64,000 nucleotides of DNA from Candidatus Moranbacteria bacterium UBA2282 (GCA_002345745.1 DDWQ01000014.1:4439-68438); one strand, 5' to 3'; counted from the first letter of the stretch, positions 5,136-42,345 are shown. Numbers and translations: made by a program. Notes: a model not told the origin generated them from the sequence alone.

Positions 5136-6974
5136 ATGTCTGATATTGACGATATAAAATCACGCCTGAACATCGTTGATGTGTTGGGAGGATATATCCG
5201 CTTGGAAAAAGCCGGTGCTAATTGGCGCGCTAATTGTCCTTTTCATAATGAAAAAAGCCCTTCTTTTATGGTGAGCGAAGATAAACAGATTTGGCATTGT
5301 TTTGGTTGTCAAAAAGGCGGGGATATTTTTGGCTTTGTGATGGAGATTGAAGGATTGGAATTCCGTGAGGCGCTGAATCTCTTGGCAGAAAAAGCTGGTG
5401 TTGAATTGAAAAAAGTTAATCCCAAACAGGCGGCAGAAAAAAATCGTACATTAGAAATTTTGGAAATGGCGACTAAATTCTATCAAGCACATTTATTGCA
5501 AACTCCAGCCGGTAAAAAAATTATGGAATATCTGCAAGAGCGGGGTATCAATGAAGAATCAATCAAAGATTTTCGTTTGGGCTATGCACCCAATGGTTGG
5601 AAAAATACATTGAATTTTTTATTAAAAAAAGGTTTTTCGGAAAATGAAATTGCTAAGACAGGACTATTGGTGGAAAAAAATAGACAGGAAACAAATTCTA
5701 CAAACTACCAACCACAAACTACCAACTATTACGACCGTTTTCGAGACCGCATAATTTTCCCCATTGCCGATACTAATGATAAAATCGTGGGCTATAGCGC
5801 TCGCGTAGCGCCAGGTGGGGATGAGTCGCAGGCTAAATATGTTAATTCGCCGGAAACAGAAGTCTATCACAAGAGTAAAATTTTGTATGGCATCAATCGT
5901 GCGAAGAATGGAATTAGACAAAGCGGAACTGTTCTGTTAGTGGAAGGTAACACTGACGTTATCGCGTCTCATCAAGCAGGTCTCGCAAATACGGTGGCTG
6001 TTTCTGGCACTGCTTTGACGCCAGAGCATATAAATATTATAAAAAGATATGCCACTGATATTCGAATGTGTTTTGATATGGACAACGCTGGAGAATTAGC
6101 CACGAAAAAAAGCATTAAGCTTTGTTTTGAAAAGGAAATTAATGTGCATGTGGTGCAATTACCATCGGGCAAGGATGCGGCAGAACTCGCTAAAAATAAT
6201 CCAGAACTTTTGCGTAGTGCGGTGGAAAATGCTAAGCCAGCGATGGAATATTTTTTTAATGCTGTATTTGCAAAGTATAATAAAGAAAAAGTAGAAGATA
6301 AGAAAAAGATAACACAAGAACTTCTTGAGATGATTAGTTATTTAGCAAACGAAATTGAAAAAAGTCATTGGTTGAAAAAATTGGCTACTGAGATTGACGT
6401 GAATGAAAATACATTGACGGATATGCTAAAAAGAGCTAGTCTTGAAAGTAGAGTAGTTACACCTTCACAAGACTTGTCTCAAGAGAGCAAGATCTTCGCC
6501 CCTAGTGGCAAAATAGAAACTCTCACAACGGATCTAATTGGATTGATGCTAGTATATAGCAATGTTTGGAAGGAAGTGTTGGAAAAGGAAAATTTATCCT
6601 TTATCCCAAAAGATAGCCTTCTAATTATTATGATTCAAAAAGGTAGGGAGTTTCGTTTTAGTTTTGATGAACTAATTAAAAATATTGATGTGCCCTTTGA
6701 CAAATCAAGGGCTGAAAAAATATATTTTGAAAGTCGCTATCGGGTTGGATTGGACAATGAGCTAGAGGAGGTTATCTTGGAGCATCCTTTGCTAGAAGCA
6801 AAAAATAGATTGCAAAACATCAAATATGAAATTAATAAAAACTTGCTAGATAAAATATCCAAGGATCTGGATGTTGCTAAAAAAAATTCAGATAAAGAAG
6901 CTGTAAAAATCCTAATGGAGGAGTATACTAAAATTAATAAAGAACAATCTTTATTAAACAAGGAAATAAATTAG
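5136..6974 (+). CDS. dnaG: DNA primase
   Basis: Zn-ribbon CPFHNEKSPSFMV...WHCFGCQKGGD; TOPRIM region (LVEGNTDVIA). Confidence 0.9.
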   Translation: MSDIDDIKSRLNIVDVLGGYIRLEKAGANWRANCPFHNEKSPSFMVSEDKQIWHCFGCQKGGDIFGFVMEIEGLEFREALNLLAEKAGVELKKVNPKQAAEKNRTLEILEMATKFYQAHLLQTPAGKKIMEYLQERGINEESIKDFRLGYAPNGWKNTLNFLLKKGFSENEIAKTGLLVEKNRQETNSTNYQPQTTNYYDRFRDRIIFPIADTNDKIVGYSARVAPGGDESQAKYVNSPETEVYHKSKILYGINRAKNGIRQSGTVLLVEGNTDVIASHQAGLANTVAVSGTALTPEHINIIKRYATDIRMCFDMDNAGELATKKSIKLCFEKEINVHVVQLPSGKDAAELAKNNPELLRSAVENAKPAMEYFFNAVFAKYNKEKVEDKKKITQELLEMISYLANEIEKSHWLKKLATEIDVNENTLTDMLKRASLESRVVTPSQDLSQESKIFAPSGKIETLTTDLIGLMLVYSNVWKEVLEKENLSFIPKDSLLIIMIQKGREFRFSFDELIKNIDVPFDKSRAEKIYFESRYRVGLDNELEEVILEHPLLEAKNRLQNIKYEINKNLLDKISKDLDVAKKNSDKEAVKILMEEYTKINKEQSLLNKEIN

Positions 6975-7016
6975 TTATTTTACCATAGAGTCTAAAGGTT
7001 AATTTTAAAAAAACCT

Positions 7017-8480
7017 ATGATTAAGAAGAAAAATATAAAAAAGCCGCTAAATAATAAAAAGAAAAAAGCTCCTGTGAAAAAAACTATTAAAAAAACGAAC
7101 AAAAAGATTGTAGTTAAAAAACCAATCAAGATGGTTGCTAAAAAGGTTACCAAAAAAGTTGTGCCGAAAAAAATTACCAAAATCGTAAAAAAATCGGTCA
7201 AAAAAGTAATAAAAACAGCACATCCAACAAAAATAATTAAGACTAAAAAAGTCTCGCAAGTTGCTGGAGCAAAAAAAATTATTAAAACAGAACATGTTCG
7301 AACAAGGAAAATAAAACAAAGTCGAGCCGAGAAAAAAATAAGTCAAGGCAAGAAAGTTGTGCCGTTTAAAGCTAAAGAAGAAAAGAAAAAGAGTATCGCT
7401 GAAGAACTTGTATATCGCGGAAAGCAACGAGGATTTATTACTGAAGATGAAATTCTACATGCTTTTCCTGATGCGGAAAAAAGCATTGATGATTTAGGAA
7501 GTTTATATGAAAAATTGGAAGAGCTAGGTGTGAATGTTTTGGGTTCAGATGAGATGATTAAAATGGAGACTGATAAAATCGGAGAAAATTTGGATGAGGA
7601 AAAAAATAGCAAAAAAAGAAAAAAGAAGGAAGTTGTTATTCCCGAGGAATCATCTTCTGACCTTGTACAGATGTATTTGCGTGAGATTGGGCGAGTGGAT
7701 TTATTAAAATCAGATGAAGAAGTTTCTCTAGCAAAAAGAATTGAAAAAGGCGATCCAATTGCCAAACAGCAATTAACAGAGGCTAATTTGCGACTTGTAG
7801 TGAGTATTGCAAAAAAATATGTTGGTCGTTCACATAATTTGTCACTGTTGGATTTGATTCAAGAGGGTAACATTGGACTTTTTCGTGCAGTTGAAAAATT
7901 TGATTATACAAAAGGTTATAAATTTTCAACCTATGCGACTTGGTGGATTAGACAAGCAGTCACACGAGCATTAGCTGATCAGTCACGAACAATTCGCATC
8001 CCAGTGCATATGGTTGAAACGATTAATAAATATACACAAATCACCAGGCGATTGGTGCAAGACCTTGGACGTGAACCATTGCCAGAAGAAGTAGCAGTTG
8101 AAATGGGATTAGAAGTTGATAAAATCAGGCACATAATGAAAATTTCACAAGAGACTGTCTCTCTGGAAACTTCTGTTGGTGACAGTGATGATGATAGTGT
8201 CTTGGGAGACTTCATCGAAGACACAGAAACAGTTATGCCACATCATGTCGCTTCACGAAAACTTTTGCGAGATCATGTTGCGCAAATTTTGGAAACACTC
8301 ACACCGCGCGAACAAAAAATTCTGAAAATTCGTTTTGGTTTGGAAGATGGCGTGGTGCATACACTGGAAGAAGTGGGGCAGGAGTTTGGTGTGACGCGGG
8401 AGCGAATTCGGCAGATTGAAGCCAAAGCTCTAGAGAAAATCAGAGAGCATGATGGGATTAATAAATTGAAGGATTACTAG
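7017..8480 (+). CDS. rpoD: primary sigma-70 factor with ~120-aa lysine-rich N-terminal extension
   Basis: Regions 2-4 ([40 protein letters not shown]; [21 protein letters not shown]). The N-terminus is KKxxKK repeats. Lies directly downstream of dnaG. Confidence 0.9.
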
Positions 8481-8573
8481 GATTTGTAGAGGAAACTTGA
8501 TTTTTTAGTAGAGTTTGGTATACTAAGTAGGCTTTAAAAATTTAACCTTTGTATCAATAAAAAAGTGCAAAGT

Positions 8574-8647
8574 TCCGCGATAGCTCAATGGTAGAGCAGT
8601 TGACTGTTAATCAATTGGTTCCAGGTTCGAATCCTGGTCGCGGAGCC
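8574..8647 (+). tRNA. tRNA-Asn (anticodon GTT)
   Basis: Acceptor TCCGCGA/TCGCGGA. Anticodon loop CTGTTAA. T-arm CCAGGTTCGAATCCTGG. Ends GCC with no encoded CCA. Confidence 0.8.
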
Positions 8648-8689
8648 TTGCACTTTTTTTATTTTGCCTAATTTGTCGAGGACGGTCCT
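8643..8689 (+). repeat. left copy of 47-bp direct repeat (overlaps the tRNA-Asn 3' end)
   Basis: GAGCCTTGCACTTTTTTTATTTTGCCTAATTTGTCGAGGACGGTCCT. Matches 11829-11874 with 1 indel and 1 substitution. Confidence 0.8.
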
Positions 8690-8795
8690 TGTTAAACACA
8701 ATATACGATACAATTCGACTTCAATTTGATGGCAGACTTGACTATTAGATATAATCGTATATAATTGAATATAGTTAAATATATACGATAAAAAT

Positions 8796-9848
8796 ATGGA
8801 AAATAGATTTGCAAAAAGGGCTATTTTAAGCCAGGAAATACTTCAAAAAATAACTAAAATTGATGAATTTAAAGGTTTATGGAAGGGTAGTTTGAGGTTG
8901 AGTCCACAGACATTGGGCAGGCTCAAACGCAGTGTGCTCATCACTAGTACAGGAGCTTCTACGCGCATTGAAGGCTCAAGGATGTCTGACAAAGAAGTGG
9001 CTAGACTTATCGCTGGTTTGAAATCAACACCACCCAAAGGTAGAGATGCACAAGAGGTGGCTGGTTACGCTGATCTTTTAGGAAGAATTTTTGATAATTG
9101 GAAAACTCTTAAAATTACTGAGGGTCAGATTTTACATTTCCATCAGATCCTGCTTAATTTTTCCGAAAAAGACAAAACTCACAAAGGCAACTACAAAACA
9201 TCTGATAATATGGTAGTTATGAGAAAAGTTGATGGCACGGAGGTTGTAATTTTTGAGCCGACCAAGCCATATCTTACTAAAAAAGAAATGGATGATGTTT
9301 TACACTGGCTAAGTGGCGAAATGAAAAAAGGGGAAACGCACCCACTCATTTTGATTGCTAATTTCATTTTTGAATTTTTAGCAATCCATCCTTTTCGTGA
9401 TGGAAATGGCCGGCTTTCCAGAGCACTGACCACACTGTTGCTTCTTAAATTTGGTTATACTTATGTCCCGTATGTTTCATTGGATGAAATTATTGAAGAA
9501 AAGAAGATTGATTATTATTTGGCTCTGCGAAAAACTCAGTCCAAACATAAAACAAAAAAAGAGGACATTACGCCATGGCTAAATTTTCTTTTAGATGCAC
9601 TTATTGAACAAATTAAAAGAGCTAAAAGCATAATGGAAGAGGATCAACCGGAAAAGTTGCTTTCGGAAAAACAACTTCTAATTTATCAGTTATTTCAAGT
9701 CGACACGCTGAGCGTTTCAGAAATTAGTAGTCTTATTAAAGACTCAATTCCAATGGTGACATTAAAGCAGTCGCTGTCACGCTTGGTGGCTTTGAGATTG
9801 ATTGAACGAGTTGGCATGGGCAGGGGCAGTCGATATAAAAAATTATAG
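8796..9848 (+). CDS. Fic family protein (AMPylation-type Fic fold) with C-terminal winged-helix-like domain
   Basis: Fic motif HPFRDGNGRLSR; upstream inhibitory-type motif STRIEG ([ST]xxxE[GN]); 350 aa. Confidence 0.8.
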   Translation: MENRFAKRAILSQEILQKITKIDEFKGLWKGSLRLSPQTLGRLKRSVLITSTGASTRIEGSRMSDKEVARLIAGLKSTPPKGRDAQEVAGYADLLGRIFDNWKTLKITEGQILHFHQILLNFSEKDKTHKGNYKTSDNMVVMRKVDGTEVVIFEPTKPYLTKKEMDDVLHWLSGEMKKGETHPLILIANFIFEFLAIHPFRDGNGRLSRALTTLLLLKFGYTYVPYVSLDEIIEEKKIDYYLALRKTQSKHKTKKEDITPWLNFLLDALIEQIKRAKSIMEEDQPEKLLSEKQLLIYQLFQVDTLSVSEISSLIKDSIPMVTLKQSLSRLVALRLIERVGMGRGSRYKKL

Positions 9849-10056
9849 ATGTTTTTTCAAAGCAGTCCTGACTTCTTCCAGGATTCGGATTCGTATTACA
9901 AAAGAGCCTGATTAAGGCTCTTTTATGCTATTAAATCGGTTCGAACATTTGATACCTTGAGCTTACATTTGAACCACTCGAGTAACTTTTATTATAATTT
10001 GACATAATTAAACTTAAGCGTTAAACTTTACTTATAATAAATCATAAATAAACTTT

Positions 10057-11187
10057 ATGTCACAAGAAGATTTTAAGGCAGGAATTTACAAGCAACAATA
10101 TCAGTATAAGAGTTTTTCCCCTTCTGCCATAACTTCATATAAATGGTCTGATCCAAAAATCGATGTTTTGCTAGAAGATGCGGTAAGATATTTGGGTGAA
10201 CTGAATGCATATTCTCTACTTGTTCCTGATGTTGATTTTTTTATCAGAATGCATATTTTTAAGGAAGCAACAACTTCAAGTCGAATCGAGGGAACCAAAA
10301 CTGGTATGGAGGAAGCGTTGCTTCCAAAAGAAGAAGTTAATCCAGAAAGAAGAGATGATTGGGCTGAGGTTCAAAATTATACTCGGGCTATGAATTATGC
10401 TATCAGTGAACTTAAAAAATTACCACTCTCAATTAGATTACTAAGAGATACTCATAAAATTTTAATGACTGGTGTTCGTGGAAAATATAAAACTCCTGGA
10501 GAAATAAGAACGAGTCAAAACTGGATTGGCGGTTCATCTTTGCAAGATGCTGTTTTTATACCACCACATCCAAGTGAAGTTCCCGAGTTGCTAAGTGATC
10601 TTGAAAAATTTTGGCACAATAAGCAAGTGGCTATGCCTCATCTTATTAAAATTGCCATTAGCCATTATCAATTTGAAACAATCCATCCATTTTTGGATGG
10701 AAATGGCCGTATAGGAAGACTTTTAATTACACTGTACCTTGTAAATGAAGGTATCTTGCGGAAACCTACATTGTACTTGTCAGATTTTTTTGAAAGAAAC
10801 AAAGGGTCGTATTATGATGCATTGACTATGGTGAGAAAGTCTGATGACCTAGAACAGTGGATAAGTTTTTTTCTTATTGGTATTTCTGAAACAGCAAAAA
10901 AGGGGAAAGTTACTTTTGAGAAAATCATTGCTTTAAGACAAAAGTCAGAACAAAAGACCATTAGTTTTGGCAAACGAGCAAAAGTATCACAAGAATTATT
11001 GAAACATTTATACTCACAGCCAGTTATGAATATCAAACAAATAATGGAAAAGTTGGATATAACTAGTCCATCAGCTAATACTCTTGTTAAACAATTTCAG
11101 CAAGCAGGTATTCTTAAAGAGCTTACAGGATTTAAAAGAAATAGACTTTTTGTATTTGATGAATATCTTAAATTATTCAATAGGTAA
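10057..11187 (+). CDS. Fic family protein (paralog of 8796-9848)
   Basis: Fic motif [12 protein letters not shown]; inhibitory-type motif SSRIEG; 376 aa. A nested GC-rich hairpin (GCCACGA...TCGTGGC) follows at ~11232-11297. Confidence 0.8.
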
Positions 11188-11431
11188 GATCAACACTTTA
11201 TAAAATCGGTTCTGACTTCCTCTAAGACTCGGGGCCACGAAAAACTCAAAAAAGACTACCTCTTTTCAGGATAGTCTTTTTTTTCGTCTCGTGGCGCCGC
11301 CAATGAAATAAATCCCTTTTCTTTTTAGTGGATGTCTTGACTTTTTGAAAGTTTTACATTATTCTTCAATATCGAATTAGGAAAGGCCTATTCGTAAATT
11401 TCTTTTACAAATTCAAGCAAAAGGAGGCACT

Positions 11432-11761
11432 ATGCCGATCATAGAATTTACAGGAGTCGAAGCGGAACGCGATGTGATTATTAACTTGATTCGTCAAATC
11501 AAGGTCTGGGTAGCATCCGTAGAGAGTTTGGGTGTTGGCATAGAGCATGTCACGCCCATATACATTCCATCGATACAGGAAAATCAGGGCGAACATACAA
11601 TGTTTTATGTGCAGGAACTTTTCACGGTAAGCTTTGCTGGCAAGTCCAGAACGACTGAAATTCGTAAGGAGCTTGCTCAAGCAATTGAGAAAGGCTTCAA
11701 TACTTTCGTCGCTACTGACAAGCTTATCGTCAAACCCAGAAGAGCAACGATTTTTTTATAA
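11432..11761 (+). CDS. hypothetical small protein, visibly GC-richer than its surroundings
   Basis: 109-aa ORF starting MPIIEF... with RBS-like AAAGGAGG upstream. No family recognised. The minus-strand overlapping ORF 11405-11680 is considered spurious. Confidence 0.4.
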   Translation: MPIIEFTGVEAERDVIINLIRQIKVWVASVESLGVGIEHVTPIYIPSIQENQGEHTMFYVQELFTVSFAGKSRTTEIRKELAQAIEKGFNTFVATDKLIVKPRRATIFL

Positions 11762-11828
11762 GTTCGAATATTTTCTAGTACATGTTTGTTTAGGCGTTGA
11801 AACATGTTCGAATCAATTTGAACTCGCT

Positions 11829-11874
11829 GAGCCTTGCACTTTTTTATTTTGCCTAATTTGTCGAGGACCGTCCT
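11829..11874 (+). repeat. right copy of direct repeat
   Basis: GAGCCTTGCACTTTTTTATTTTGCCTAATTTGTCGAGGACCGTCCT. Confidence 0.8.
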
Positions 11875-11906
11875 CACTAAGCAAAAAACAAAACAAAGAG
11901 GAATGC

Positions 11907-12980
11907 CTAATGTCTGATCCCGATTACGATCCAACGCCAGATCTTCAAACATCGAGATTCCCAGATTTTGAAACACTGAGAGTTTAAAAAGAAAGAAACA
12001 AGGTTTCTTATAACATGATGAGGACGATTATAAGCGAACATTTTTTTTGAAAGTATATTGATCTTATAAAAAGATTCTATTCTGCCTAAGAAACTATTTA
12101 CCTCAGCCAGTCTTACCCATCGCTGATTAAATAAAGTAATAAGTTTTTCTGTGATGATTATTTGCTGTTCTTTGGTAAACGTTGGCGGATAGTAGGTGTT
12201 TTTGTACCAAGCTTCATGGCAATGGTATACTTCAGAATCAAAAATACGAGCGAATATGTCCATATTTGCCAAGAGATTTTTAAATTCTTTTGTATTGCGA
12301 TCAAGACTTCTAATCTTTTTTTGAAAATTTATATAAATTTTTTCTAATTCATTGTTTTTCTGGTCGCCATCTTCTAGCATGCGATGGAATTCCCTGGGGG
12401 ATAGACTCTTATTTTTTCCTTTCTTTGCCGATTTGGCACGTAGAAACATTATAAGCTTATATCGCTCATCTTTTTCAAGTAAATTAGTATCAGAAAATAA
12501 AATTTGGTCTTGAATTAAATGTATAATCAGTTTTTCAGCAGTATGACTTTTAAGAATAATGAGTGAATGTACTTCTTCAATCCACCTTCTGCGTATGTCA
12601 ATTAATTTTAAAAATTCATAAAATAAAAATGACTCATCAATAATTTCTTTTTCCAGTTGTTTCTTTAGGGCTTGTGTATTTGTTATATAAACTACATAAT
12701 AATCTTGATTAAGCTTGTTGAGATTATCAAGTTGAGACTTAAAAACCTCAAGATTATGTTTTTTTTCTGCAAGCGTCTTATCAAAAAAATTTTTAAAAAA
12801 ATAGCTAGCGATTACATATATTAAATTGATACTCAACATAATGCCCAGAGTAAAATTTAGCGTTGGCCATGATATGCCAGCTGTTAAGGTGTCATAGATG
12901 TCTTTGAAGTTGTTCATAGAATGTAATATAAAAAATTTATCAATTATTTTTATTATACTTAAAACAATAATTGCATGCAA
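11907..12980 (-). CDS. hypothetical protein with N-terminal TM segment
   Basis: 357-aa ORF on the minus strand with an internal TM (LGIMLSINLIYVIASYFF). No recognisable motifs. The true start may be an internal Met (MNNFKDIY). Confidence 0.45.
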   Translation of the reverse strand: MHAIIVLSIIKIIDKFFILHSMNNFKDIYDTLTAGISWPTLNFTLGIMLSINLIYVIASYFFKNFFDKTLAEKKHNLEVFKSQLDNLNKLNQDYYVVYITNTQALKKQLEKEIIDESFLFYEFLKLIDIRRRWIEEVHSLIILKSHTAEKLIIHLIQDQILFSDTNLLEKDERYKLIMFLRAKSAKKGKNKSLSPREFHRMLEDGDQKNNELEKIYINFQKKIRSLDRNTKEFKNLLANMDIFARIFDSEVYHCHEAWYKNTYYPPTFTKEQQIIITEKLITLFNQRWVRLAEVNSFLGRIESFYKINILSKKMFAYNRPHHVIRNLVSFFLNSQCFKIWESRCLKIWRWIVIGIRH

Positions 12981-13122
12981 TCTTCGAGTAAGGGGGCTTT
13001 TATGTTTGAATCTGCACAGTCAAAAAGTTCCTAACCATCAAATCATCTTTTGTGATATAATAAAGCTAGTAATTAAGCAGAGATAAAGAATAAAAAATAA
13101 TTTTTTAACTAGAAATTAATAT

Positions 13123-14004
13123 ATGGAAAAGATGGAAAAAATGTCAGGATTATTTCCAAAAAAAGAAGAGTTTGATGATAGGGAAAAAATATTAAAAAGT
13201 CTGGAAAAAATCGGTCTGCATGAAAAAATTCATGAAGAAATTCTTTGGCGATTAATTTTGCTCGAACAAGAATCAAAATTTAACGAGGATTCTCGAAAAA
13301 TTGAACGAGGAGTTGACAATGTGTTTAATTTTCTTGAGCAGCGATATAATACTCGCTATCCACAATTAATATTTACACCAGAGCAAAAAATAGAAGGACG
13401 CACTGCTGCAATATTACATGACATTGGGAAGACTGGTCCGGCAGAGGCAAGTGTGGCAGAAGCAAAAACTATTGTTAGGATTTTTGCCCAAGAACAAATT
13501 AAAGATCCAGCAATGTCTTTGGAAGAGGTTATCGCAAAAAGCTTTCCTCAAGCAGAAGGAGATGTTATGGTAATGCATTTGAAAAATCTTGGGATTGATT
13601 TGCAAACAAGCAATACACAATTTTGGGATATGCACGCACAGTGGACTCATGATATTTTGGAAAAATTCCCCATAGGGCTAAATGAACACACCAGAATTAT
13701 TGCTGGATCACACCATTTCAACAAAGGGATTAATCCGTATGAACTTTCTGAATCAGAAATTCCACTGCAAGCTGGAGCTATTGGCTTGATGGAGGAATAT
13801 GTTGATGCGGTAGAAGGCCGCATACTAATGGTGGTTGATCAATATGAAGCTAATCGCAGGCGCAGTGGTTCCAGTCATGAACACGCGATAGCTTGGGTTC
13901 GCAAGAATTTAAAAGAATCCAAAAACTTTAAAAATGATGAAATTATAGTGTTAATTTGTGATGCGATAGATGAATTGGGCAGAGAAGAAAGTATATTTTT
14001 ATAG
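13123..14004 (+). CDS. HD-domain phosphohydrolase
   Basis: ILHDIGK ... AGSHHFN motifs typical of the HD superfamily. Confidence 0.65.
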   Translation: MEKMEKMSGLFPKKEEFDDREKILKSLEKIGLHEKIHEEILWRLILLEQESKFNEDSRKIERGVDNVFNFLEQRYNTRYPQLIFTPEQKIEGRTAAILHDIGKTGPAEASVAEAKTIVRIFAQEQIKDPAMSLEEVIAKSFPQAEGDVMVMHLKNLGIDLQTSNTQFWDMHAQWTHDILEKFPIGLNEHTRIIAGSHHFNKGINPYELSESEIPLQAGAIGLMEEYVDAVEGRILMVVDQYEANRRRSGSSHEHAIAWVRKNLKESKNFKNDEIIVLICDAIDELGREESIFL

Positions 14005-14059
14005 TAGTTAGAATCTGAGTTTTAGAATCTGAGTTTGCTCTTGCTTTTTGCCGAAAAGT

Positions 14060-14127
14060 AGTGTATAATGAAAAGGTAGTAGAGAATATAGGTAATATTT
14101 TAGAAAACGGGTGAACCCGTTTTTTGC
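14060..14127 (+). promoter_or_regulatory. extended -10 promoter (TGTGTATAAT) followed ~35 nt later by an intrinsic terminator hairpin: short leader or attenuator
   Basis: TGTGTATAAT at 14060-14069. AACGGGT-gaa-CCCGTT plus TTTTTT at ~14106-14127. Preceded by a 14-bp tandem duplication TTAGAATCTGAGTT x2 (14007-14034). Confidence 0.4.
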
Positions 14128-14154
14128 CGTTTTAGAGCAATTTTAAAAGAAAAG

Positions 14155-14856
14155 ATGAAAAAAATACAAATAAAACTAAATACTAGACTTAAAAAGGCGA
14201 AATTGAAAAAAAGTGCTTATATTAGGTATTTTATGCAAAGATTTAATATTATCACTGAAGATATCAAAAAAAGCATTGAACCAGGGCTACTTAATAAACA
14301 TCAAGTAACGGTTGTAATGCTGGTTAGTTTTATTGTATTTACAAGTTACATTATTTTAATTAAACAATATTATTATCAAAATTTTTTGCAAGTGCGTCAG
14401 GTTGAGCAAAAAAGTGTGCAGGAATTTAAAGCAGAAAAGTTTGAAAAAGAGCTAGCAACTCTAGTTGCGGGTTATCCAATTGAAGCTATGGTTCCATATA
14501 TTGCTAAAAAAGATAGAGACACCGCTGCATATCTAATTGGAATCGCTAAAAAAGAAAGTAATTGGGGCAAAAGAAAACCCGTGCTAGATGGAAAGGATTG
14601 TTATAATTATTGGGGTTTTAGAGCTACACGCGAACGGATGGGCAGTGGCGGACACACGTGTTTTGATAATCCGAAAGAAGCAGTCAATGCTATTGCAAAT
14701 AGAATTGATCAAATTATTGTGAGAAATGATGTGAAATCAGCAAAAAATATGGTTGTTTGGAAGTGCGGTTCAAATTGTGATGTGACTGGCGGACAAGATG
14801 CAGCTGACAAATGGATAATCGATGTGGATATGTATGCAAAAAAAGTCTTGAATTAG
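14155..14856 (+). CDS. membrane-anchored GH73/FlgJ-like (ESxWG...YNYWG) putative peptidoglycan glucosaminidase, paralog 1
   Basis: N-terminal TM. IAKKESNWG and YNYWGFRA resemble the FlgJ/AcmA catalytic Glu motif and the YNLFG motif. Four conserved Cys (DC, CFD, KCGSNC). Paralogs at 39461 and 41635. Confidence 0.5.
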   Translation: MKKIQIKLNTRLKKAKLKKSAYIRYFMQRFNIITEDIKKSIEPGLLNKHQVTVVMLVSFIVFTSYIILIKQYYYQNFLQVRQVEQKSVQEFKAEKFEKELATLVAGYPIEAMVPYIAKKDRDTAAYLIGIAKKESNWGKRKPVLDGKDCYNYWGFRATRERMGSGGHTCFDNPKEAVNAIANRIDQIIVRNDVKSAKNMVVWKCGSNCDVTGGQDAADKWIIDVDMYAKKVLN

Positions 14857-39460: not shown

Positions 39461-40537
39461 TTGATGGATGCAATAAAAAAAAATAAGTTAGATGGATTGT
39501 GCAAAAAGGACAAGAAAATATTTTTTTTTGATCTTCCATTGGCTCGTTTTGTAGGTAAATATAAAAATTCTTCAGTTTTTCTTTCTAAAAAAGGTAAGAT
39601 TGATTTTTTTTATACTGAAGATTCAAAATTATATGTGACGCCGACCGAATATCGCCGGTTAGAAAAAGGTGAAAAAATTGTGCGTGTCTCAAATAGAATG
39701 GACAGCGCTCTTTCTAGAGATTTTGGAAAGACTAAAATATATTCAATTGGTCAGCGAGACATTGTTTATTACAATATTAAAAAGAGATATTCTAATCTTG
39801 GAAACTACTTTAATGATTTAGTTCATGGTGCAGTGCAGGGTGTTTCTATGGCTAGGATGTGGAATTTGTCGATTGTTGGGGCAGTTATTTTTGGAATGTT
39901 AACGATGACGATGATTTATAAATATTTAGGACAAAATGTTTCAGCGGCACTCAATGATGCTGTCTATGCTGAACAATTACAACAAATTGAGTCAATTATA
40001 ATTCCGAGTGGAAGCAATGTTGTTGACGCTAAAGAGGCACAATCTGAAACAACTGACAGTATTGATACTTCTTTTGTAACTAAAATATTAGCACAGGCAG
40101 AGGAAAAAGAGGATAGTGAATTCGAACAGGAATTACGTGAAATGGTAAAAGGTTATCCAATTGAATTGATGATTCCTGAAATAGCCAAGCAAGATAGAAT
40201 TGTCGCAGCCTTCATTGTCGCTATCGCTAAAAAAGAAAGTGCGTGGGGGAACCGTATTCCAGTGTTAGATGGTCAAGATTGTTTTAATTATTGGGGTTAT
40301 CGTGGTATTCGCGACCGAATGGGCACAGGTGGACATACTTGTTTTGATAGTCCAGCAGATGCTGTAGCTACGGTGGGGAAACGCATTGCAACTTTAGTAG
40401 ACGAATATGGTCGAAACACGCCTGCGGAGATGGTTGTTTGGAAATGCGGTTCTGATTGTGAAGTTACGGGTGGGCAAGCAGCTGCTAATAAATGGATTTC
40501 TGATGTGGCGTTGTATTTTGATCAATTGAATAAGTAA
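39461..40537 (+). CDS. membrane-anchored GH73/FlgJ-like putative peptidoglycan glucosaminidase, paralog 2 (longer cytoplasmic N-terminus)
   Basis: IAKKESAWG; FNYWGYRG; CFDSP; VVWKCGSDCEVTGGQAAANKWISDV; one TM. Confidence 0.5.
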   Translation: MMDAIKKNKLDGLCKKDKKIFFFDLPLARFVGKYKNSSVFLSKKGKIDFFYTEDSKLYVTPTEYRRLEKGEKIVRVSNRMDSALSRDFGKTKIYSIGQRDIVYYNIKKRYSNLGNYFNDLVHGAVQGVSMARMWNLSIVGAVIFGMLTMTMIYKYLGQNVSAALNDAVYAEQLQQIESIIIPSGSNVVDAKEAQSETTDSIDTSFVTKILAQAEEKEDSEFEQELREMVKGYPIELMIPEIAKQDRIVAAFIVAIAKKESAWGNRIPVLDGQDCFNYWGYRGIRDRMGTGGHTCFDSPADAVATVGKRIATLVDEYGRNTPAEMVVWKCGSDCEVTGGQAAANKWISDVALYFDQLNK

Positions 40538-41634: not shown

Positions 41635-42345
41635 ATGGTTGATCCACTGCCCAGTCTCAAAAAATTGAGAGACATCTATGAGGGGATAGATACGGTTAAA
41701 AAGAATCATATTAAATTATCATTTACTATTCTCACGCTAAGTATAGGGTTATTTTTTTACTTTGCATCTGATAATCAAGCTTTGGCTCACAGAAAAGATG
41801 AACCTTTACATATTACACCAGAAGCCATTGACCCATTGCATAGGATTGGAAAGGGTATCAAAATTTTTGATTGCACAGTTAGTAGTTCTTGTTTAAAAAC
41901 AGAAACGCTTGTACAAGCAGAAGTTGTTACGGCTGATAATTCAATAATTGCCGAAACAGTAGCTGGCTCTCCAATGGCAGAAATGGTGCCAGCATTGGAA
42001 CAGAGGAGCAAAGAGGTTTCTTCCTATCTTGTGGCCATTGCTAAAAAAGAAAGTGATTGGGGAGTTCATTCGCCAAAAAAAGCAGGTCGTGATTGTTATA
42101 ATTATTGGGGTTATCGCGGAAAAGAAAATACAACAGATTCTGGATATAGTTGTTTTGATTCTCCAAACCATGCAATTGAAGTGGTTGGTGATAGGATTGA
42201 GAAACTTTTAGACCAAAATATCAATACACCGGCAAAAATGGTAGTTTGGAAATGTGGATCAAATTGCGAGGCGACTGGTGGGCAGGCAGCGGCTAATAAA
42301 TGGATTTCTGACGTGAAGTTATATCATGATAGGCTAAGTTCATAG
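41635..42345 (+). CDS. membrane-anchored GH73/FlgJ-like putative peptidoglycan glucosaminidase, paralog 3
   Basis: IAKKESDWG; YNYWGYRG; CFDSP; VVWKCGSNCEATGGQAAANKWISDV. Confidence 0.5.
   Translation: MVDPLPSLKKLRDIYEGIDTVKKNHIKLSFTILTLSIGLFFYFASDNQALAHRKDEPLHITPEAIDPLHRIGKGIKIFDCTVSSSCLKTETLVQAEVVTADNSIIAETVAGSPMAEMVPALEQRSKEVSSYLVAIAKKESDWGVHSPKKAGRDCYNYWGYRGKENTTDSGYSCFDSPNHAIEVVGDRIEKLLDQNINTPAKMVVWKCGSNCEATGGQAAANKWISDVKLYHDRLSS

Follow-up and report, generated by a model that had tools for sequence, protein, structure and literature searches.

Two Fic genes and a broken gene between copies of a tRNA-Asn 3' end in Candidatus Moranbacteria bacterium UBA2282: a possible decayed, integrase-less islet

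The stretch of DNA considered here (64,000 nt; hereafter the window) comes from Candidatus Moranbacteria bacterium UBA2282, an uncultured member of Candidatus Moraniibacteriota within the Patescibacteria or Candidate Phyla Radiation (CPR), and our subject is the segment of it that lies between two copies of the tail of a tRNA-Asn gene. The gene order is dnaG (5136–6974), rpoD (7017–8480, plus strand, with Pfam Sigma70 regions 1.1 to 4), tRNA-Asn(GTT) (8574–8647), two Fic-domain genes, Fic1 (8796–9848) and Fic2 (10057–11187), and ORF109 (109 aa, 11432–11761), followed by ORF357 (357 aa, 11907–12980, minus strand) and an HD-like open reading frame (ORF; 13123–14004). The segment between the tail copies is a 3.2 kb patchwork of the two Fic genes, confirmed by Pfam as the preliminary description of this DNA had them, and one broken gene. 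Loci of relatives compared with the window are labelled L085, L086, L088, L098, L108 and so on; rpoD belongs to the conserved left flank, with the order dnaG–rpoD–tRNA-Asn common to the window, L085, L088, L090, L022 and L098. In a species-level genome collection, the closest RpoD matches are metagenome-assembled genomes (MAGs) of Moraniibacteriota, at 74–80% identity.

The tRNA-Asn gene, on the plus strand, is intact and intron-less (ARAGORN; Rfam RF00005, 75.3 bits). Its last 10 nt and 42 nt of trailer (8638–8689) are repeated at 11824–11874, the copies being 52 and 51 nt long and 94% identical. The left, attL-like copy comprises the 3' strand of the acceptor stem, the discriminator and the 42-nt trailer, and the right copy departs from it in three places: a G>T change in the acceptor 3' strand, a T-run that is one T shorter, and a G>C change at the centre of a palindrome. 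Gapped local alignment lengthens the match to 8622–8689 versus 11803–11874 (score 88, against a shuffle maximum of 28), by including a T-loop that reads CAGGTTCGAATC on the tRNA side and CATGTTCGAATC in the right remnant. The right, attR-like copy (11803–11874, plus strand) therefore consists of a T-loop remnant at 11803–11823 followed by the 51 nt of near-identity; after the T-loop, the T-stem is replaced by AATTTGAAC. The chance expectation for a 40-mer of the repeat in 64 kb is 0 matches, and a third copy is absent from the window, including the right end of the block formed by ORF357 and the HD-like ORF. Alignment of the copies thus bears out the duplicated tRNA 3' end and the degenerate T-loop directly before the right repeat that had been described at first sight, with the repeat slightly longer than claimed and three differences between its copies. 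The suspicion that the repeat might be a common motif fails for the 52 nt as a whole, which have no further copy in the 64 kb, and holds for the last ~19 nt, a palindrome that recurs in other genomes.

The borders of the two copies differ in character. At the right copy, near-identity ends sharply at 11824 and the tRNA-like sequence upstream is degenerate, an edge that fits the arm of an attP site or a recombination boundary. At the left copy, homology with L098 and L088 passes through the tRNA to ~8675 and then ends, and island-specific DNA begins at ~8690, directly behind the tRNA gene, whose 3' end is at 8647. The right copy is apparently the displaced original, given an L098-type T-run (its length, 6, is that of the native L098 trailer), a complete palindrome and the flank CTAAGCA. 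Direct repeats with the tRNA 3' end thus stand at both borders, as in islands integrated into tRNA genes.

The tRNA itself is enclosed by an inverted repeat (8559–8580 versus 8638–8659; 22 nt, 91% complementary). The leader arm AAAAAAGTGCAAAGT (8559–8573, plus strand) pairs with the trailer CCTTGCACTTTTTT and lengthens the acceptor stem, the helix folding as a 12-bp extension (−44.2 kcal/mol, z = −5.7). It is identical in L098, the closest relative found, and absent from L088, L085 and L090. The inverted repeat reported earlier is therefore real, but its 3' arm is CCTTGCAC and not CTTTGCAC.

As had been claimed, no tyrosine or serine recombinase is encoded between or beside the repeats, nor within about 10 kb of the segment. 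A Pfam search of every ORF from 5136 to 14856, among them two overlapping the right repeat, returned zero recombinase domains and thus none of the integrase folds for which such a search had been proposed; the source's own gene (Pfam) annotations over 3123–24004 contain zero recombinases; and tblastn of the relatives' tyrosine integrase and two large serine recombinases against the window gave nothing better than E = 0.08. The 54 ORFs of the window as a whole were judged by reading their products by eye. Remnants of phage genes or of genes belonging to integrative and conjugative elements (ICEs) were not detected in the segment with Pfam or PHROG. The stop codon of a tyrosine integrase in L088 sits in the homologous trailer, which raised the idea that the repeat is itself the 3' end of an integrase gene; this was rejected, as the frames do not correspond and L098 has the trailer without an integrase.

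The first module of the segment is a cassette on the plus strand (8721–9857) that holds Fic1 and its own promoter, scored as strong in a promoter scan (TTGACT-16-TATAAT, 8738–8765). Fic1 matches Pfam Fic (E = 1e-17), the PADLOC SoFic profile (E = 3e-43) and the NCBIfam SoFic model (56.3 bits), and carries the catalytic motif as HPFRDGNGRLSR at residue 198 and the inhibitory motif S-x3-E-G at residue 55. Over 1140 nt the cassette has 88% DNA identity with L108 and L109. There it lies ~320 nt from the 5' end of a tRNA-Asn gene that contains an intron and is oppositely oriented; the neighbourhood differs from that in the window, and a different Fic gene comes next. Behind Fic1, a tRNA-like remnant does not reach significance when set against the window's own tRNA (p about 0.06), and for a 36-nt motif common to both post-Fic regions the score of 27 is borderline, the null maximum being 26–29.

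Direct reading of the sequence revealed three copies of TATACGAT(A) at 8701–8792, two direct and one inverted, which overlap the Fic1 promoter and are kept in L108 and L109. An operator role is conceivable for them, perhaps as a target of the winged helix at the C-terminus of the Fic protein itself. Another repeated element, of ~100 nt, stands ahead of both Fic genes in L108 (8806–8913 and 10080–10190); it contains a conserved mini-ORF of 16–18 codons (..RKKILWQKIIKELIG*) and a degenerate copy of the palindrome at its end, and its second copy is interrupted in L109 by an insertion of 1.9 kb with TrmB and an ORF of 209 aa.

Fic2, likewise on the plus strand, has promoters of its own (9969–10027) and the SoFic-type arrangement of Fic_N, Fic and winged helix, with Pfam matches to Fic_N and Fic and a weak one to SoFic-like_C. 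It matches the PADLOC SoFic profile nearly end to end (E = 7e-120, positions 4–359 of 361), with the catalytic motif HxFx(D/E)GNGRxxR at residue 210; its score with NCBIfam SoFic NF046030, 179.5 bits, is below the 550-bit equivalog cutoff. Both Fic proteins combine the catalytic motif with the N-terminal S-x3-E-G inhibitory motif and share 27% identity; the islet would express two self-inhibited (class II) Fic AMP-transferases. Members of the SoFic group have been reported to act in abortive-infection defence through AMPylation (bioRxiv 10.1101/2022.05.11.491447; PMC12249575). Profile similarity places Fic2, and less clearly Fic1, in this group, and with its full SoFic architecture Fic2 is a candidate abortive-infection defence gene. 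The resemblance to the described systems (Millman et al., bioRxiv 10.1101/2022.05.11.491447; Sofic/AS1, PMC12249575) lies in the end-to-end profile match of Fic2, in the catalytic and inhibitory motifs, and in a weaker match of Fic1. Unlike them, Fic2 falls short of the equivalog score, no AS1-like small ORF (~47 aa) was found downstream of Fic1 or Fic2, two paralogues so diverged stand in tandem, and Fic1 has, across the clade, the conservation of a housekeeping gene.

Directly after Fic2 lies a second degenerate remnant of a tRNA-Asn 3' end with a hairpin terminator (11201–11289, plus strand), the terminator being of the type that follows tRNA-Asn in L108. Local alignment of this region to the 3' half and trailer of L108 tRNA-Asn scores 58 against a shuffle maximum of 38, which suggests an older tRNA-Asn remnant with the trailer of another lineage. 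The nearest relative of Fic2 in hand (66% amino-acid identity) adjoins a different tRNA: in L086 (6619–8027) the homologue comes directly after tRNA-Ser(GGA), with pyruvate kinase and dnaG either side, and in the corresponding place after tRNA-Ser (1674–1762) the window has RidA, threonine dehydratase and an AAA_14 ATPase. The tRNA-Ser site thus looks like another tRNA-linked variable site.

The third module (11337–11749, plus strand) is a fragment of a gene family of ~128 aa, consisting of a promoter (TTGACT-17-TATTCT), a 5' untranslated region (UTR) and the first ~106 codons. ORF109, which it contributes to, closes with 3–4 unrelated codons. All ten full-length homologues (10/10) have 125–149 aa and a longer C-terminus, so that ORF109 lacks the last ~23 codons; the region is 87.6% identical in DNA to L105 and L106 and the identity stops at 11749, 75 nt from the right repeat. 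The loss of the gene's end is direct evidence that a deletion or rearrangement took place close to the repeat. The fragment has 40.9% GC against 35.9% for the window, and the GC-richer small ORF noted earlier is thus real as to its composition but is a truncated gene, not a whole small ORF. The ~95 nt upstream of ORF109 (11337–11431), with the promoter and 5' UTR, are kept from an identical start point in five homologous loci (70–88% DNA identity); this region may be structured, and Rfam has no family match for it. Between the truncated gene and the tRNA remnant lies an AT-rich filler (11750–11802, 24.5% GC).

A local tandem duplication followed by decay would account for part of this arrangement: two tRNA-Asn genes with identical trailers would once have flanked native genes, the second losing its 5' two-thirds, and no foreign DNA would have come in. 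The truncated ORF109 and the truncated tRNA are only 53 nt apart and could stem from the same deletion, the composition of the segment is native, and L107 has a member of the ORF109 family in the same orientation, 4.6 kb downstream of rpoD and tRNA-Asn. However, none of the relatives examined has two tRNA-Asn genes at the locus, the genes that follow tRNA-Asn in the closest relatives are entirely different, and the Fic1 cassette occurs elsewhere in other contexts. We regard a tandem duplication as improbable.

The tRNA-Asn site in relatives is highly variable. In L098, 77% identical in DNA over dnaG, rpoD and the tRNA, homology ends at ~8675 and BRO-like ORFs and ArsP follow; in L085, ArsP, MscS, BacA and DedA come after tRNA-Asn. 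L088 has a minus-strand tyrosine integrase whose stop codon lies 23–25 nt after tRNA-Asn, in a trailer homologous to the repeat of the window (TTTGTACTGCTTTATTTTAGCCCTAATTTCGAGAC), and which heads a block of ~6 kb with 45–60% GC, while large serine recombinases with primase-like genes stand at tRNA-Asn in L090 and L086. The differing cargo indicates that insertion at tRNA-Asn is common in the clade, and the 3' end of this gene is a recombination hotspot throughout this clade of Moranbacteria.

The closest relatives L098 and L085 are without Fic genes at tRNA-Asn and have other content there, but no exact empty junction, and no second occurrence of the island, came to light in L098, L085, L088, L090 or the strain's contigs. 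Every contig that exact-protein look-ups with rpoD and the HD-like ORF retrieved was 100% identical to the window, and scanning a genome collection with RpoD gave relatives no closer than 80% (best-matching segment), with synteny broken to the right of rpoD. All seven rpoD contigs of the strain (7/7) carry the island, the four that were fetched being 100% identical to the window (4/4), and no circular form was found among the strain's contigs. A metagenome scan with the tRNA tail plus TTGYAC gave 11 matches, 9 of them chance occurrences in coding genes of unrelated organisms; the relevant ones were only L098 and the L088/L089 contig. Scans of viral contigs with a 20-mer of the repeat, Fic1 and ORF109 yielded nothing, the tRNA tail matched one unrelated GC-rich contig there, and the L088 integrase has one relative among them (49%), with no tRNA nearby.

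To the right, the variable DNA extends beyond the repeat. ORF357 (minus strand, 29.9% GC) is the sole uncharacterised gene that touches a repeat; it is a near-orphan and not a recombinase, with no significant Pfam, PHROG or PADLOC match; of 1.84 billion representative clusters, just 6 hold homologues. Since the window matches L085 again no earlier than 14040, the right flank too is probably accessory, ORF357 and the HD-like ORF probably making up an older accessory block. The variable stretch thus probably runs from ~8675 to ~14040, past the right limit of 11880 originally set for the island. The return of L085 synteny is marked by ORF 14155–14856, the first of three paralogous ORFs of the window (with 39461–40537 and 41635–42345) that have a common C-terminal domain, ..AKKES.WG....G.DC.NYWG.R........GY.CF.SP..A......R....

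We therefore interpret the segment, with confidence evenly balanced between belief and doubt, as a decayed, accreted and integrase-less islet derived from insertions at the 3' end of tRNA-Asn, and similar to a cis-mobilizable element (CIME). The incoming DNA would have brought its own copy of the tRNA 3' end and trailer and recombined with the tRNA-Asn of the chromosome, most probably through a tyrosine integrase of the kind still found at tRNA-Asn in L088. This would have rebuilt an intact tRNA at the left junction and displaced the old 3' end, trailer and palindrome 3.2 kb to the right. The three modules (Fic1, Fic2 and the truncated gene) have differing affinities and promoters of their own, which, together with the second tRNA-Asn remnant, makes the segment a mosaic. 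Its cargo would have accreted from modules that formerly adjoined tRNA-Asn genes rather than come from one element, as is suggested by the degenerate tRNA-Asn remnant beside Fic2 and by the place of Fic1 beside tRNA-Asn in L108 and L109. A later deletion would have taken the 3' end of ORF109 and presumably the former recombination genes, and without a cognate integrase acting in trans the islet is probably unable to move. The earlier proposal of site-specific integration into the tRNA gene is thus supported by the duplicated tRNA 3' end, the lack of an integrase and the integrase-bearing elements of relatives, but the inserted DNA is a mosaic and not one coherent element. As between the decayed element and the satellite mobilised in trans that had been offered, the former fits best, since ORF109 has lost its end so near the right repeat; nothing was found in favour of a satellite, the island being present in every rpoD contig of the strain.

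Several observations weigh against an integrase-mediated origin. The near-identical block lies largely downstream of tRNA-Asn (42 of its 52 nt). The identity blocks of tRNA-targeting integrases are normally inside the tRNA, with the attB site of tyrosine integrases reportedly in its 3' half. At the right end of the L088 element no tRNA-derived repeat (attR) was found, so the sole integrase-bearing neighbour does not demonstrate an att duplication of the type in the window. The strain's contigs are identical and no empty site appears among them, so that we infer the insertion rather than see it, and the relatives examined supply neither an exact empty junction nor a second island. The DNA between the repeats has native rather than deviant composition (35.4% GC, against 35.9% for the whole window). 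The Fic1 family has more than 120 clusters (90% clustering) at 81–96% identity, almost all of them exactly 350 aa long, and across MAGs of Moranbacteria and Parcubacteria its conservation is at least that of the RpoD core. Such conservation is unexpected for a supposed defence or accessory gene, and Fic1 may be a relocated native gene rather than cargo. Finally, the remnant nearest the tRNA is more degenerate, which calls for the extra assumption of a pre-assembled cargo block.

The segment may instead have arisen without any site-specific recombinase. A circular or linear fragment from the tRNA-Asn neighbourhood of a related Moranbacterium, brought in for example by natural transformation, may have entered by a single homologous (Campbell-type) or illegitimate crossover over about 50–70 nt of shared tRNA tail, trailer and palindrome; this would duplicate just the shared part, and the repeats would be by-products that were never att sites. 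An identity block that is mostly trailer and ends inside the palindrome, native GC, cargo modules with their closest relatives in other Moranbacteria, and the lack of an integrase in or around the segment are all in keeping with such a crossover, and L098 and L108 have insertions at the trailer or palindrome without duplication, showing that the region recombines in several ways. However, 52 nt is short for a RecA-dependent single crossover, the integrase-bearing elements of relatives do use tRNA-Asn, the degenerate T-loop to the left of the identity block resembles the arm of an attP site, and the second tRNA-Asn remnant suggests a repeated, site-directed process. We consider this route somewhat unlikely.

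Among known systems, the islet is closest to CIMEs, which have been defined as elements that lack the genes for integration and transfer and keep attL and attR (ICEberg 2.0, PMC6323972). At the level of sequence the segment has this form, its att sites being putative. As in CIMEs, defined for the ICESt1/ICESt3 family of Streptococcus, and in decayed tRNA-linked islets that accrete in tandem at att sites, attL- and attR-like repeats are present without integration or transfer genes, the site is used by integrase-bearing elements in related genomes, and internal remnants of earlier junctions are found. Unlike in those cases, a cognate ICE or integrative and mobilizable element with the same att sequence was not identified, most of the repeat falls downstream of the tRNA, and the host belongs to the CPR, for which conjugative elements were not documented here. 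With classical tRNA-integrated prophages and islands the segment has in common that the tRNA is intact at one end and that a displaced 3' fragment of it stands at the other, with accessory cargo between. It departs from them in having no integrase and no compositional deviation, in that only 10 nt of the near-identical block and a degenerate T-loop belong to the tRNA, and in combining, as a mosaic, genes with promoters of their own.

The last ~19 nt of the repeat, at its distal end, form a palindrome (GTCGAGGACSGTCCTC), both copies finishing GTCGAGGAC(G/C)GTCCT.... The left palindrome, GTCGAGGACGGTCCTTGTT (8675–8693), has a degenerate right arm within which the island-specific DNA starts, and forms a hairpin of only −2.3 kcal/mol. 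The right one, GTCGAGGACCGTCCTC(ACT) (11860–11878), is complete (DNA hairpin −7.4 kcal/mol, z = −3.4), and its CTAAGCA flank is common with the L098 copy. The motif, GTCGAGGACNGTCCTCGAC, has the core GTCGAGGACSGTCCTCGAC and reaches ~23–30 nt in its fullest form, TCAGTCGAGGACCGTCCTCGACTGGGTTTC. The 12-nt core occurs independently at least 5 times in about 260 kb of Moranbacteria loci, with 2 copies in the 64 kb of the window against a shuffle mean of 0.025. The complete copies form DNA hairpins of −7.4 to −10.8 kcal/mol, and the motif is thus a recurrent extragenic palindrome. In relatives, copies lie at L098 4905–4930, L103 174–200 and 1759–1788, L108 12628–12657 and L109 5284–5313, and degenerate ones upstream of Fic1 in L108 and L109. 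Most copies come just after gene ends, and several are in or next to segments that differ between relatives. A search of viral contigs with the palindrome gave 19 matches, judged to be chance occurrences in unrelated contigs.

Its position at module borders raises the prospect that the palindrome, rather than the tRNA, directed the insertions, as a hairpin of the repetitive extragenic palindrome (REP) or IS200/IS605 kind or as the site of a host recombinase, with the tRNA tail duplicated incidentally. Besides the frequency of the core, 30 nt of the palindrome are identical between L103 and L108 in otherwise unrelated contexts; a 1.24 kb two-gene indel that distinguishes L108 from L109 has its junction 13 nt from the motif (at 12634 in L108 and 5290 in L109); two copies flank a 1.6 kb three-gene segment in L103 and L104, with a weak Y1_Tnp gene (PF01797) beside one copy in a sister contig of L103; and in L098 the motif (4910) directly follows the variable BRO-like ORFs behind tRNA-Asn. 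However, the duplication in the window reaches 37 nt to the left of the palindrome, into the tRNA, which hairpin-end transposition does not predict. The window has just the two copies, and no Y1 or TnpB gene was seen in it, by tblastn with the relatives' recombinases or by eye among the ORF products. Homology between L103 and L102 is unbroken at the motif, which usually follows stop codons or terminators and could be a transcript-end structure. Insertion directed by the palindrome therefore seems to us quite unlikely as the origin of the segment, for which we keep to a decayed islet at tRNA-Asn.

The palindrome may be a REP-like element, a transcript-end hairpin or a recombination site. REP elements with their REP-associated tyrosine transposases (RAYTs) and the sub-terminal hairpins of IS200/IS605 are the closest known hairpin systems; like these, the motif is short, GC-rich, near-perfect and intergenic, lies mostly after gene ends and has one weak Y1_Tnp neighbour. 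Unlike them, it has a very low copy number (2 in 64 kb), no transposase recognised in the window and no established conserved 5' tetranucleotide, and in the window it is part of a longer duplicated unit. A bolder proposal, to which we give little credence, is that it is the recognition site of an unrecognised system of cassette insertion or exchange in Moranbacteria with no integrase in cis. With a host factor or a Y1/HUH enzyme behind it, this system might shuffle single-gene modules such as Fic behind gene ends, and the tRNA-Asn islet would be one cassette array between two copies of the site.

The tRNA-Asn gene of relatives is also interrupted and bordered by other elements. In several of them a group I intron (Rfam RF00028, 57–74 bits) splits tRNA-Asn(GUU) after anticodon position 35 (L086 11803–12114; L107 5034–5406; and, on the minus strand, L108 7971–8678 and L109 1–440), and because of it ARAGORN misses these split genes. 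The L108 intron carries an HNH-like ORF. Group I introns at position 35/36 of tRNA-Asn in Patescibacteria have already been published (PMC13011429), in a paper in which neither ‘GIY-YIG’ nor ‘duplicat’ occurs. An ORF of ~80 aa with a GIY-YIG domain lies just upstream of tRNA-Asn in L086 (11455–11837) and L109 (406–760), with the full gene on one side and on the other a second copy of part of the tRNA's 5' end (30 nt in L086, ~22 nt in L109), each such pseudo-copy having a GC-rich hairpin after it. The arrangement resembles a mobile cassette directed at the 5' part of tRNA-Asn, which it regenerates.

An integrase-less islet linked to a tRNA gene is a common kind of scar, and a known one. Its value here is as a worked example in the Patescibacteria, where mobile elements are poorly described. 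Of its features, only the palindrome that recurs at module borders might lead to something new. In very small genomes, the tRNA-Asn gene draws elements with tyrosine integrases and large serine recombinases, group I introns, small GIY-YIG cassettes and Fic modules, and candidate SoFic-type defence genes accumulate at this site.

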